From a virus (Duplodnaviria; Caudoviricetes), in the IMG/VR virus record IMGVR_UViG_3300020045_001604, positions 9,788 through 73,787 of that record: a stretch of DNA of 64,000 bases. One strand, 5' to 3'. The position numbers and the translations under genes were made by a program. This document shows positions 6,770 to 15,437 of this stretch, piece by piece (within the stretch, counting starts at the first letter, position 1; each line of letters begins with the position of its first letter). The notes below the pieces were generated by a model, which saw only the letters and a list, made by a program, of their open reading frames with translations, ran no database searches and had not been told where the DNA came from.

Positions 6770-7045
6770 TTATTTATTTTTTTTACCTCTTGCTCTTTTG
6801 TCTCCAGGCATGTCATTAGTATCACCTCTGTTAACTGATGCCTTCTTCATTACGTACCCCTTCTTCGTGTGTGCTAGGTCCATACCGTTCTTATCTCCGT
6901 ATGTTCCTCTTTTACGATTCTCTCGGTTAAGCTCTACTCGTTTAGCTACTTGTTTATCAGATTTATTATATTCCTTCTGATACTCGTTACGCTTTTTTCT
7001 AGCTTCTGGATTCTCTTTGTAATATGTAGCAGTTTTACCTGGCAT
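6770..7045 (-). CDS. Basic hypothetical protein
   Basis: ORF track; translationally coupled within the cluster. Confidence 0.65.
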   Translation of the reverse strand: MPGKTATYYKENPEARKKRNEYQKEYNKSDKQVAKRVELNRENRKRGTYGDKNGMDLAHTKKGYVMKKASVNRGDTNDMPGDKRARGKKNK

Positions 7046-7182
7046 TATTTCTTCTTTTTTATCTTTTTTTCTTGTTTAAGCATCTCCTTAGTTGGAGCCT
7101 TTCCACTTCCAGCATTAGCTCTAATGTTATCCCAAAGTCCTCTTTTAGATACTGATCCGTCTTTTCTTTTTATCATCTTCAT
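7045..7182 (-). CDS. 45-aa Lys-rich protein (not in ORF track)
   Basis: MKMIKRKDGSVSKRGLWDNIRANAGSGKAPTKEMLKQEKKIKKKK. Confidence 0.65.
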   Translation of the reverse strand: MKMIKRKDGSVSKRGLWDNIRANAGSGKAPTKEMLKQEKKIKKKK

Positions 7183-8613: not shown

Positions 8614-10218
8614 TTATGCTCTTGCCATTGTTATAATTGCGTTAGTACTAAGCACTGTTGTCGATACTGATACGGCATTCTTCAGCGCGTTCTTTGTTAC
8701 CTTTAATGGATCGATTACTCCCATCTTGTACATGTCGCCGGTTGTCATGTTCTTGATATCGAATCCGACAGTGTATCCTTGACATCCTTCCATCAACTCG
8801 TATCCGTCTAGTCCTGCATTCTCGAATATCTGTAGTAGTGGTGCCTGAATGGCTCTTGCCACAATATGCATTGCCGCGTACTGCTCGGCGCTGATGTCTT
8901 CGATCATGTCGTCTGCATCTGCAATGATCGCGTACGACTCGTTGAACAGCGCTACTCCACCACCAGGTAAGATGCCCTCCTCCAGTGCAGATCGTACCGC
9001 GCATACTGCGTCGTCTACCCTGTCCTTGCGTTCTTTCTGTTCTAGGTCAGAGTTTCCTCCGACGTGAATCACGGCAATTCCACCTGTCAAGCTGGCGATA
9101 CGCTCCTTGATAAAGTCCTGGTCATTCTTTTTATTACTCAAGTCGTGAGCCTGCCATAACTGAGCTACTCTTTCTTCTACCACGTCAGTGGTCGATTCTG
9201 ATTTTATAATTGACGCCGATTCCCTTCCAACGATTACACGCTTAGCCTTACCAAGTGACTCGATTGTCATAAGGCTCAGGTCGTCTCCAGTCTGTTCTGA
9301 GAAGTACTTAGCACCTACTGCCAACGCGATGTCGTTCATCAGTTCGTTTCTCTTGTAACCAAACTCAGGCGGTGTGATGTTACAGAACTTAAGTCCTTTC
9401 TGCACTACGTTGATTGCCAGTGTGTTAATTACGTTTTGACTGCACGGACCGATGATCAATAGTTTTTTTCCTGTTTGGATTACGTCTCTAAGTACATTCT
9501 CGATCGATAGGATGTTGTTGATCTCCTGATCCGTAACCAGAATGTGTACGTCCTCTAGTATGCACTCGTCCTTTCTGTGGTCGTTAACGAATAGTTGTGA
9601 CGTGTATCCTCTGTTTACTTTGATACCGTTGGTGTACTCGCAGTAGGTCTCGGCCGTCTGTGAGTTTTCAACCGTTACGATACCGGTCTTGCCCACCTTG
9701 TCGTACGCTTCAGAGATCAAGTTACCAATCTCAGAGTCGTTGTTGGCAGATATCGACGCCACGTTGTTCAACGTCTTGCCCGTTACCTTTTTTGAGCGCT
9801 TCTCTAGTCGACTGATTAACTTGTTTGTTGTGTCGTTGATCTGTCTGATCACCTCTGTTGTGTTCAGGTTACTAGTGATCATGTCCTGACCGTGCTTTAC
9901 CAGTGCCTCTGTTAGTACGATAGCCGTTGTGGTACCGTCACCAGCGCTTGTCGCGGTGCGGTCGGCCGCCTCTTTCATCATCTTTACTGCCAGGTTCTCT
10001 ACCGGGTCTAGTAGGTCAATTGATTTAGCAACTGTTACGCCGTCCTTAGTTACTGTAATACCGTGCGTGTGGTTTATCGACTCGATTAGTACGGTCTTTC
10101 CGCGCGGTCCTAGTGTGCTCTTTACTGCCTTGGCAATCGTGGTGATGCCGTTGATTAGTTTTTCTCGTCCTTCTTGTTCAAAGTCTAGAACTTTTGGACT
10201 GTATCCGAAGTTTGTCAT
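8614..10218 (-). CDS. groEL: Chaperonin GroEL
   Basis: TLGPRG, VTKDGVTVAK, AGDGTTTA, GILPGGGVAL, GVIDPLKV motifs; no GGM tail. Confidence 0.97.
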   Translation of the reverse strand: MTNFGYSPKVLDFEQEGREKLINGITTIAKAVKSTLGPRGKTVLIESINHTHGITVTKDGVTVAKSIDLLDPVENLAVKMMKEAADRTATSAGDGTTTAIVLTEALVKHGQDMITSNLNTTEVIRQINDTTNKLISRLEKRSKKVTGKTLNNVASISANNDSEIGNLISEAYDKVGKTGIVTVENSQTAETYCEYTNGIKVNRGYTSQLFVNDHRKDECILEDVHILVTDQEINNILSIENVLRDVIQTGKKLLIIGPCSQNVINTLAINVVQKGLKFCNITPPEFGYKRNELMNDIALAVGAKYFSEQTGDDLSLMTIESLGKAKRVIVGRESASIIKSESTTDVVEERVAQLWQAHDLSNKKNDQDFIKERIASLTGGIAVIHVGGNSDLEQKERKDRVDDAVCAVRSALEEGILPGGGVALFNESYAIIADADDMIEDISAEQYAAMHIVARAIQAPLLQIFENAGLDGYELMEGCQGYTVGFDIKNMTTGDMYKMGVIDPLKVTKNALKNAVSVSTTVLSTNAIITMARA

Positions 10219-11012: not shown

Positions 11013-11086
11013 TGGTCCCACATGGGCTCGAACCATGGACATCCTGATTATGAGTCAGACGCTCTAACCAACTGAGCTATGGGACC
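11013..11086 (-). tRNA. tRNA with CAT anticodon, most likely tRNA-Ile2 (lysidine type); CCA not encoded
   Basis: GGTCCCA/TGGGACC acceptor, GCTCAGTTGGTTAGAGC D-arm, TCTGA-CTCATAA-TCAGG anticodon arm, TTCGAGC T-loop; C4/C5 acceptor pairs as in TilS substrates. Confidence 0.9.
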
Positions 11087-11212: not shown

Positions 11213-11292
11213 TGATTGAGGTGAGATTCGAACTCACATATCACCAGTATATTTTTCAATACTGGCTGCCTAAACCGTTCAGCCACTCAATC
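11213..11292 (-). ncRNA. tRNA-like RNA with over-long anticodon arm
   Basis: GATTGAG/CTCAATC acceptor, GTGAG-TTCGAAT-CTCAC T-arm, GCTGAACGGTTTAGGC D-arm; anticodon arm GCCAGTAT-TGAAAAAT-ATACTGGT (8 bp plus 8-nt loop). Confidence 0.75.
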
Positions 11293-11398
11293 TCCACTAA
11301 GGCAGCGGCGTCCTTAGTCGCACTTTTCAGGTGATCAGCCTGGAGGTTTTGTTTTAGCCCGGGTGTATTTAACCTCTTAAACCAGGATCCGCTTATCG

Positions 11399-11501
11399 AG
11401 ACCGAGACAGGATTCGAACCTGTAAGAGTTAATATCTCAACACAGTTGTGCTTACTTTACACCAATACTTTCTGCAATGTTTACCATTCCATCACTCGGT
11501 C
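11399..11501 (-). ncRNA. Class II tRNA-like RNA with expanded, irregular anticodon arm
   Basis: GACCGAG/CTCGGTC acceptor, ACAGG-TTCGAAT-CCTGT T-arm, GATGGAATGGTAAACAT D-arm, GTTGA-GATA-TTAAC variable hairpin; about 34-nt anticodon domain with no canonical 7-nt loop. Confidence 0.75.
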
Positions 11502-13320: not shown

Positions 13321-13377
13321 TTGACGTATATGGATGTGTTATCCATACTGATGAGTCGCAGAACGACGAAACGTTAA
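13321..13377 (+). ncRNA. Hammerhead ribozyme, type III (HH1); predicted cleavage after A13328 (GUA)
   Basis: ttgacgt|a|tatggat-gtgtt-atccata|CTGATGA|gtcg-cagaa-cgac|GAA|acgttaa: all three stems and full core. Confidence 0.9.
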
Positions 13378-13386
13378 TTACTTATT

Positions 13387-13623
13387 ATGAAAGCAGAAAT
13401 TTTAAAAGCAGTAGAAAACAATAAAAAAGTAATAGTATATGATTTAATTTTTACATCATTCAGAAATTGGAATGGAGAAAGAGAGTATAAAATGCAAAGT
13501 GATAGAAATAGAGATAAATGGAAAACTTATGATTCAGAAAAAGAATATATAAAGGCAATAATGCAAAGAGTAAATTATTACATCAAAAGAGGATTTCCTA
13601 ATGTAATAGAAATTCAAGGTTAA
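13387..13623 (+). CDS. Hypothetical early protein between HH1 and HH2
   Basis: ORF track; stop codon lies in stem I of HH2. Confidence 0.75.
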   Translation: MKAEILKAVENNKKVIVYDLIFTSFRNWNGEREYKMQSDRNRDKWKTYDSEKEYIKAIMQRVNYYIKRGFPNVIEIQG

Positions 13624-13667
13624 CTGACGAGTCTTAAATAGACGAAACGCCGAGAGGCGTCTTAACC
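13618..13667 (+). ncRNA. Hammerhead ribozyme, type I (HH2); predicted cleavage after C13661 (GUC)
   Basis: ggttaa|CTGACGA|gtct-taaat-agac|GAA|acgcc-gaga-ggcgt|c|ttaacc. Confidence 0.92.
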
Positions 13668-13683
13668 AATTAAATTAATTATT

Positions 13684-13935
13684 ATGAATTCAATATCAAA
13701 AACACATAGAGGATGTACTTACTTTGGAAGTTCTGAAGAAGCGATAAATAAAACAATACAGGAAGCAGAATTTCAACGCTCAATTTTTTATAGAAGCAGC
13801 GTATATGCTTACTCTTGTTTTGCTAGATTATTAAATGACAACTCAGTAGAATTTACAGAATCTTTTAATAACGGAGAGCGTCGTAAAACATCTAACTTTA
13901 AAAGTAAAGATGATTTTTGGAATAGCAAAGGTTAA
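13684..13935 (+). CDS. Hypothetical early protein between HH2 and HH3
   Basis: ORF track; stop codon lies in stem I of HH3. Confidence 0.75.
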   Translation: MNSISKTHRGCTYFGSSEEAINKTIQEAEFQRSIFYRSSVYAYSCFARLLNDNSVEFTESFNNGERRKTSNFKSKDDFWNSKG

Positions 13936-13980
13936 CTGACGAGATCTAAATGATCGAAACGGGCACTGCCCGTCTTAACC
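13930..13980 (+). ncRNA. Hammerhead ribozyme, type I (HH3); predicted cleavage after C13974 (GUC)
   Basis: ggttaa|CTGACGA|gatc-taaat-gatc|GAA|acgggc-act-gcccgt|c|ttaacc; compensatory changes relative to HH2 in stems II and III. Confidence 0.92.
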
Positions 13981-14869: not shown

Positions 14870-15001
14870 CTCCTTTCCAACTTTGAAATGTAGGCCGTGT
14901 TGTTGGTTGTATCGCTACGTTTGTATGGTCACTGAATTGGAAAGATTTGAATTCAAGACGTAAAACAACACATAAGTGACTGCTAGGAAAGACTAGCACA
15001 C

Positions 15002-15141
15002 GAAGAGGTGGCGGAAAAGGAAGACGCTAAATACTTAATATGATTTAACTTATGGAGTTAAGTATAAAAAATCCAATCATTGTAAATTCGTTTAAAATTT
15101 TGATAAAAATCATAGTGCAGGTTCGAGTCCTGCCCTCTTCA
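15002..15141 (+). ncRNA. Leu-like tRNA mimic with an 88-nt AU-rich insert replacing the anticodon and variable arms
   Basis: GAAGAGG/CCTCTTC acceptor plus A73, TGGCGGAAAAGGAAGACGC Leu-type D-arm, GCAGG-TTCGAGT-CCTGC T-arm. Confidence 0.75.
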
Positions 15142-15164
15142 CTAACCTTAAATTAATTAATAAC

Positions 15165-15437
15165 ATGAGAGTAATTATCACACAAGGCGACTACGGATTC
15201 GGTCGCAACTGGACGCTAGAGTACAACAAAAAACAATTCTTCCTAGGCCAAGACGTAAAGTTCTGTCAAAGGGTTTTAGGTATAGGGCCTAGAGTAATCA
15301 TTGATGTAATTGGAACGGCAGAGATTGACAACAACACAATAGGCAACAAGAAACTGGCCAAGTTTATTGTAAGCCAACTGGGGTTGACGCGACAAAATGT
15401 AAAACAACTTAATACTTGGGAACTATGTGCACAATAG
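15165..15437 (+). CDS. Hypothetical protein
   Basis: ORF track; follows the tRNA-like element. Confidence 0.75.
   Translation: MRVIITQGDYGFGRNWTLEYNKKQFFLGQDVKFCQRVLGIGPRVIIDVIGTAEIDNNTIGNKKLAKFIVSQLGLTRQNVKQLNTWELCAQ

Follow-up and report, generated by a model that had tools for sequence, protein, structure and literature searches.

What use does a phage have for a gene that keeps the shape of a tRNA and carries 88 nt between its D and T arms? The question is raised by positions 15002-15141 (+) of the window, by which we mean the whole 64,000-nt stretch of DNA analysed here, most of a 73.8-kb IMG/VR virus record. Phage tRNA genes are commonly taken for decoders that serve codon supply or anti-defence, and unusual ones are put down to pseudogenes or annotation noise. 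In this case, selection on the tRNA shape is clear, decoding has almost certainly been abandoned, and the inner part behaves as a conserved, swappable module. The terminase, portal and other proteins relate this phage to podophages of Flavobacterium, Cellulophaga and Tenacibaculum, and no annotated phage was matched by DNA-level similarity. The element itself sits among small co-oriented early ORFs.

The element is a tRNA-Leu-shaped RNA gene of 140 nt with no encoded CCA, and all parts described below lie on the plus strand. A first-pass annotation had described a perfect 7-bp acceptor stem, a canonical T arm and a Leu-type D loop, and all three are present. The 5′ strand of the acceptor stem (15002-15008) pairs at 7/7 positions with 15134-15140, after which the discriminator A73 stands at 15141, as read from the sequence and from covariation; U8 and G9 occupy 15009-15010. 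The D arm (15011-15027) has a 3-bp stem (15011-15013/15025-15027) and an 11-nt Leu-type loop with A14, A15 and G18G19, and U48 at 15116 leads into the T arm (15117-15133), whose stem (15117-15121/15129-15133) encloses the loop TTCGAGT (15122-15128). Between the D and T arms lies an insert of 88 nt with a GC content of 18% (15028-15115). The annotation held that 88 AU-rich nt had replaced the anticodon and variable arms; the length and composition stand, but a vestigial anticodon arm persists at 15029-15045, at the canonical distance from the D arm. Its weak stem (15029-15033/15041-15045) has one A.A mismatch and one G.U pair, its loop CUUAAUA (15034-15040) differs by one base from the CUUAAAA of Flavobacteriales tRNA-Leu(UAA), and position 37 is U where a purine is expected. 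Longer, invariant competing helices of 8-9 bp take both halves of this arm.

As had been predicted, no clean tRNA call was obtained: ARAGORN was silent at default settings, and the Rfam tRNA model (RF00005) gave no match even at E up to 10. With introns allowed, ARAGORN reported a tRNA-Leu(taa) with a 48-nt intron. Of the features of a canonical tRNA, the element has the 7-bp acceptor, the discriminator, the D and T arms and the conserved tertiary bases, and it lacks a 5-bp anticodon stem with a 7-nt loop carrying U33 and a purine at 37. It also scores below the RF00005 gathering threshold, which shorter family relatives reach at 31-47 bits. The fold of the whole element is better than that of shuffled sequences (z = -2.9), with 1/200 shuffles equally good. 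A scan of 1.3 Mb on both strands with the shell, by which we mean the acceptor stem, D/T elbow and core, gave 20 matches, 19 of which are tRNAs or tRNA-like elements, and the element recurs in at least 12 independent contigs. This specificity and this recurrence together exclude a chance origin.

Whether the tRNA shape is maintained was judged from the wider family, which we sampled by recruiting 80 related loci with a helicase-primase-like protein and adding viral contigs, metagenome contigs and whole records. Scans found many oversized tRNA-like genes, from 59 to 220 nt. Across an alignment of 19 members (A1), U8, G9, A14, U48, G53, U54, U55, C56, A58 and C61 are invariant and A15 is nearly so; the invariant columns are the tertiary-contact bases that build the L-shape of a tRNA. 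All seven acceptor pairs have changed on both sides, four of the five T-stem pairs covary, and both stems are 100% paired (n = 19), compared with 0 to 6 of 13-15 covarying pairs and 41-47% pairing in controls in which the 3′ partners of the whole structure were moved by 1-3 columns. Because the acceptor and T-stem pairs covary at full pairing, decay is ruled out; the random decay of these stems in relatives, which the first-pass annotation had offered as a way to overturn its reading, did not appear among the 19 members. That the element is a tRNA-Leu pseudogene, broken by insertions and decaying without function, is thus scarcely credible. A degenerate anticodon arm, an AT-rich interior and a patchy presence among relatives would suit such a pseudogene, but perfect stems with compensatory changes, invariant tertiary bases, near-identity of the element where its flanks have diverged, and recurrence in at least 12 contigs all speak against it.

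The family is represented in 10 of 50 related records, and in 6 of the 20 whose completeness is 90% or more; the 90-aa ORF downstream of the window element also occurs elsewhere without it. The element is therefore accessory and dispensable. Judged from sequence, the hosts of the family are marine and freshwater podophages of Flavobacteriia. Our literature searches returned no description of this RNA family, and the copies in GenBank MW202828.1 are unannotated.

The descent of the shell is indicated by its covariance model, which, across three Flavobacteriales genomes, matched only ordinary tRNA-Leu genes of 81-89 nt and no long tRNA-like forms. The ancestry is therefore tRNA-Leu, and the earlier description of the element as a Leu-type tRNA mimic was apt. 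With the class II tRNA-Leu(UAA) of Flavobacteriales (RF00005), the element shares the acceptor, A73, the D arm with A14, A15 and GG, U48, the T arm, the absence of an encoded CCA, a trailer starting with C, and a vestige of the CUUAAAA loop. It differs in length (140 nt, whereas the host gene has 81-89 nt), in having U37 and no stable 5-bp stem with a 7-nt anticodon loop, and in carrying 71-88 nt in place of a 17-nt variable arm.

Despite this descent, the element is almost certainly unable to read codons. We consider it very unlikely to be a working tRNA-Leu(UAA), whether used unaltered, with a variable region of 71 nt, or after loss of a 48-nt insert from the anticodon loop. Such a tRNA would account for the intron-mode ARAGORN call, for a loop that differs from the host loop by a single base and keeps the canonical spacing from the D arm, and for the YGUUU that ARAGORN's stem requires and that is kept in the linkers of all copies of the window's own form (W-type below). 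It fits poorly, however, with U37, with a stem that has an A.A or A.C mismatch and otherwise only A-U and G.U pairs, and with the invariant competing helices of 8-9 bp, which bury the anticodon loop. Intron-mode calls shift by allele among Leu, Ile, Tyr, Stop, Phe and none, and near-identical copies of the window element are called Ile rather than Leu; since the identity changes between near-identical copies and between alleles, these calls are forced fits. An intron-less canonical allele was found in none of the viral, metagenome and genome collections, and the shortest allele at this locus, of 72 nt, has a 6-nt loop and so is not a canonical tRNA. A pattern scan that covered 185,579 species, each represented by one genome, found no normal-length tRNA with this acceptor, only chance matches and one 76-nt non-canonical copy in a GC-rich contig; a 5′-shell scan of viral contigs added only chance matches in coding sequence. 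The 76-nt copy (L140 7729-7804, minus strand, in a contig binned as Pseudomonadota) has the window's acceptor, D-arm and T-arm sequence around a GC-rich hairpin with a 5-nt loop; its flanks extend the acceptor helix to ~15 bp, and a small ORF lies downstream.

Excision of an intron was considered separately. No tRNA_int_endo, RtcB or RNA_ligase family match was found in the phage, and no Rfam ribozyme or intron match was obtained in the insert (E up to 10) or in the other alleles. Group I introns are usually longer than 200 nt, and the earlier judgement that the insert is too short to be one holds: a group I intron in a tRNA-Leu(UAA) was rejected because the insert measures 48-88 nt, matches no catalytic core and has no intron-less canonical counterpart. 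A protein-spliced bulge-helix-bulge intron was rejected because the phage lacks a splicing endonuclease and ligase and its host is bacterial. A host RtcB may be at hand; to our knowledge, bacteria have no mechanism that excises a 48-nt tRNA intron and no splicing endonuclease. We regard an intron-bearing tRNA as unlikely.

If the element does not decode, its interior needs another explanation, and the insert of the window's allele has a structure of its own. Both pairings named in the first-pass annotation exist. The first (15032-15038/15058-15064) extends to the 9-bp stem of a hairpin, P_A (15031-15065; stem 15031-15039/15057-15065, 17-nt loop), which is part of the minimum-free-energy fold, buries the vestigial anticodon and shows zero substitutions across W-type copies. 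The second is a long-range helix, P_B, in which 15039-15046 pairs with an invariant 3′ strand at 15107-15114, ending 2 nt before the T stem. We read P_B as a probable homologue of the anticodon stem; in the 72-nt allele (G002) it corresponds to the 6-bp anticodon stem, and in two other family members, L010b and L018a, to the closing helix. These two have the same topology as the window's allele, in which a hairpin follows the D arm and its loop pairs with a segment just before the T arm. The P_A and P_B pairings cross and must therefore represent a pseudoknot or else a pair of alternative folds. Because P_A is absent from L018a, where two changes are uncompensated, we put the pseudoknot forward only as a hypothesis. 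The alternative folds lie ~4 kcal/mol apart or less, in calculations that did not enforce all forced-pair constraints, which is too close for energy to decide among them. The linker at 15076-15101 is the sole part of the insert that varies among W-type copies, indels included.

Comparison of alleles revealed that shell and interior behave as separate units. Across relatives, the acceptor stem, A73, the T arm, the upstream motif and the leader are kept at this locus, while the interior, which here takes in the D loop, exists as at least six unrelated forms with total lengths of 72-220 nt. These are a 72-nt form with a 6-bp stem and 6-nt loop (G002); a 92-nt form (L006, L083 and L086); a 107-nt form (L090); the W-type of 140-142 nt, in the window and six other contigs; a form of 171-172 nt (L088 and L093); and a 220-nt form that stands behind its own Bacteroidota-type promoter (L089). 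A phage whose adjacent ORF is 99% identical carries the 72-nt allele instead. Conversely, L010b and L018a have one interior in common but differ in their shells; an inner helix of this interior shows a single compensatory change from G-C to A-U, and each of those shells carries a second interior elsewhere (L018b and L017a). No viral contig held the W-type interior in another shell. A second locus of the window, at 11399-11501 (-), has three interiors among close relatives. Since interiors are swapped within one shell and one interior occurs in two shells, shell and interior are separable, recombining modules.

The gene at 11399-11501 (-) is itself an oversized Leu-type tRNA-like gene of 102-103 nt whose acceptor begins with GACCGAG. 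Its shell encloses other interiors in a 123-nt element of G002 (L189 1501-1623) and an 84-nt element of G004 (L200).

Each interior is nevertheless conserved within its type. The element is identical at 92/92 positions between L083 and L086, where the adjacent ORF is 80% and the upstream 200 nt 73% identical; at 140/142 between L085 and L094, against 74% and 54%; and at 170/172 between L088 and L093, against 89% and 55%. Interior types are thus nearly invariant while neighbouring genes and flanks differ by 10-45%. Among W-type copies, identity reaches 99-100% over positions 1-71 of the element and over its last 40 nt where the adjacent ORF is only 78-81% identical, and the 13 variable columns are confined to 15014, 15076-15077 and 15088-15101. 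If the 88-nt insert is assumed to be uniformly free to vary, the probability that 12 variable insert columns fall in one 26-nt stretch by chance is ~4e-7. Part of the near-identity of the cassettes could reflect recent lateral spread instead of purifying selection, an account against which the three linker haplotypes argue only partly. A coding function or a tmRNA-like tag in the insert was rejected because the linker indels shift every frame. Antisense targets in the phage were not apparent, reverse-complement k-mers of the insert being at or below the shuffle expectation, and BLAST of the insert against 301 Flavobacteriaceae genomes returned scattered, low-complexity, AT-rich matches with no consistent place.

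The surroundings of the element suggest how it may be produced. A hairpin with a 6-bp stem and a GAAAGA loop (14981-14998, +) ends 3 nt before it. All allele types have a hairpin immediately ahead of the 5′ end; where the upstream gene is another one, the hairpin differs but occupies the same spot, overlapping the upstream stop codon. On the 3′ side, a conserved AT-rich leader of 23 nt (15142-15164, +) begins with C and is directly followed by the ATG of the 90-aa early ORF (15165-15437, +). Trailers starting with C are common to the family, host tRNA-Leu genes, the phage tRNA-Met and the tmRNA of a relative. Three hammerhead ribozymes lie ~1-1.7 kb upstream (13321-13377, 13618-13667 and 13930-13980, +); their Rfam scores are just below gathering, with E-values of 1.7e-8, 7.7e-6 and 2.5e-4, and hammerhead cores with compensatory changes in stem II occur in the early regions of about 20 related loci. 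The early-operon placement proposed from the sequence is therefore well founded, with real hammerheads upstream and a conserved AT-rich leader adjoining the 3′ end of the element.

Other features of these boundaries were noted. The hairpins at 14933-14955 and 14981-14998 (+) both show GGAAAGA in the loop, as do hairpins in L010, L017, L018, L048 and L050, and a conserved motif of ~20 nt containing GGAAAGA stands 5-8 nt upstream of tRNA-like elements in divergent phages. Elsewhere, this motif gave only chance matches in coding sequence. An RNA 3′-end cap, a protein site and a promoter are candidate roles for it. Upstream of L090 10157 (-), the same 23-nt leader joins the upstream ORF to the 90-aa ORF with no tRNA-like element between them, and the same contig has the 107-nt allele and leader ahead of a different ORF; judged by these sequences, the leader acts as a portable ORF boundary.

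Taken with the modular interiors, this layout leads us to a reading that we hold with even confidence: the element would be a non-decoding derivative of tRNA-Leu(UAA) that host RNase P and RNase Z release from an early polycistronic transcript, with its conserved interior as payload. Host RNase P would cut the early transcript at 15001/15002 and leave the upstream mRNA ending in the 14981-14998 hairpin, which, to judge from its position in the sequence, may cap its 3′ end. Host RNase Z or trimming enzymes would cut after A73, and CCA would then be added as it is to host tRNAs, which likewise do not encode it; no CCA-adding enzyme was found in the phage. The products would be a stable RNA of ~140 nt that displays the payload and a downstream mRNA freed with the 23-nt AT-rich leader. 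A short AT-rich leader suits the translation of Bacteroidota mRNAs that lack a Shine-Dalgarno (SD) sequence. Such cutting would separate the flanking mRNAs, alongside the three upstream hammerheads. The shell would supply processing and stability, the interior (P_A and P_B) would act as a sequence-constrained payload on a putative partner, and recombination would reshuffle payloads and shells between phages.

The first-pass annotation had proposed a fourth processing signal in the early transcript. The hairpin, leader and hammerheads fit punctuation by RNase P and RNase Z, but a signal is insufficient, since the interiors are conserved. In its pure form, like a t-element, the shell would be an RNase P/Z signal for making monocistronic mRNAs and the interior would have no function; we think this unlikely. 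Several features can be cited for it: an intergenic place among co-oriented early ORFs, close to hammerheads that do the same job; the upstream hairpin and constant leader; interiors that are wholly different between alleles; and mini forms of 59-72 nt. An interior without function, however, is at odds with types that stay near-invariant beside flanks diverged by 10-45% and with W-type variation held to a 26-nt linker, and the interiors have been swapped as whole cassettes rather than eroded. The full D arm and the tertiary bases of the core are also kept, which is more than plant t-elements are known to retain. The settings of some members argue against it as well: a tRNA array that includes tRNA-Met contains family members, others lie between a phage tmRNA and an ORF, and one stands at the end of an operon, where a terminator follows and no further ORF. 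The conserved payloads, the conserved tertiary core and these non-punctuation settings disfavour a role as signal only; with the interiors conserved and the settings so varied, the RNA looks like a product and not just a cut site.

A product could also work through its shell. As a decoy or sponge, a CCA-tailed and possibly leucylated RNA would titrate a host factor with affinity for tRNA tops or for tRNA-Leu, such as a tRNA-targeting defence nuclease, an acceptor-end-modifying toxin, LeuRS or EF-Tu, and an arms race would drive the diversification of the interiors. All alleles at this locus keep A73, the Leu-type D loop, A14, and A15 with U48. These overlap with the identity set of E. coli LeuRS, namely A73, A14, A15-U48 and the placement of GG in the D loop, read independently of the anticodon. 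The early expression context, the turnover of cassettes, which is compatible with conflict, and a relative that has a tmRNA beside such elements, an investment in translation-related RNAs, point the same way. On the other hand, the discriminator of the wider family varies among A, C and U, a sponge would have to be present in very large amounts, and a decoy that acts by its shell alone needs no conservation of the payload at the sequence level. We consider this account quite unlikely.

A more specific version of the payload reading, which we offer tentatively as a possibility, is that the element is a natural tRNA scaffold. The tRNA-Leu shell would serve as a chassis for host RNase P, RNase Z and CCA-adding enzyme, and would present early, exchangeable payload RNAs (aptamers, decoys or regulators directed against factors of the host or of rival phages) that are shuffled by recombination at shell sequences. 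In the engineered tRNA scaffold of Ponchon and Dardel, the anticodon arm gives way to the RNA to be expressed, and the recombinant product is then processed and stabilised by enzymes of the host (PMC3753655, from the same group). The phage element has the same architecture, but the scaffold is a laboratory design. We know of no natural, recombining, scaffold-like family that has been described.

The stable RNAs species 1 and 2 of T4 (rnaC and rnaD) are the nearest natural precedents known to us. These RNAs, of ~140 and 120 nt, lie in the T4 tRNA cluster. Like the element they are phage-encoded, and they are stable RNAs co-transcribed and processed with tRNAs and with no assigned function; they differ in not being known as a family of shells with exchangeable payloads and in having enterobacterial hosts. 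Plant mitochondrial t-elements and the MALAT1 mascRNA are likewise tRNA-like folds within transcripts, at which RNase P and RNase Z cuts define mRNA ends, and the position of the element between ORFs fits this pattern. They are not known to keep much beyond the acceptor and T domain or to have a conserved cargo, whereas the phage element keeps a full tertiary core and a conserved interior, its own cleavage being a prediction. A tmRNA (RF00023) also has a tRNA-like acceptor/T domain around a large insert, there with pseudoknots; the element differs in having a real D stem and A-U instead of G3.U70 at pair 3-70, and in having no tag reading frame that survives the linker indels. Identity as a tmRNA was rejected for the window element on the A-U pair, the broken frame and the absence of any Rfam or ARAGORN tmRNA call. 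The element is a tRNA-Leu by descent and punctuation- or scaffold-like in its working, neither a tmRNA nor an intron host.

The small-RNA biology of Bacteroidota is poorly known. If the payload reading is true, the family would be a new class of early phage RNAs in this phylum, a natural precedent for the engineered tRNA scaffold, and a ready chassis for RNA expression in Flavobacteriia. On the conservative reading, punctuation by RNase P and RNase Z together with the hammerheads would offer an unusually explicit view of the division of an SD-less early operon into mRNAs.

Several other RNAs were observed in the window and its relatives. At 11213-11292 (-), a tRNA-like gene with a 7-bp anticodon stem and an 8-nt loop is called tRNA-??? 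by ARAGORN, with the anticodon 'aaaa'; it adjoins a normal tRNA-Met (11013-11086) and is conserved in L045 (9088-9165) and in G004. A related phage (G014, the record of L017) encodes a tmRNA at L187 1674-2036, with an Rfam score of 97.7 bits and an ARAGORN tag ending in VGVAA; it lies in the early region, flanked by two members of the tRNA-like family. A conserved structured spacer of ~110 nt, with short hairpins that include a T-arm-like one, is found in L017 (~8650-8765) and L018 (~6930-7050), placed between tRNA-like elements and after the tmRNA; it matched no Rfam family. The early region of another relative has an Rfam DUF805b RNA motif (L185 2420-2452, +; 37.9 bits against a gathering score of 35.6). 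A mini form of 59 nt is present in G035 at 11370-11428 (L192). Finally, MW202828.1 (L206) has an unannotated, long-armed tRNA-like RNA of 108 nt at 523-630, followed at 637-697 by a 61-nt form without an anticodon arm and then by an intrinsic terminator.
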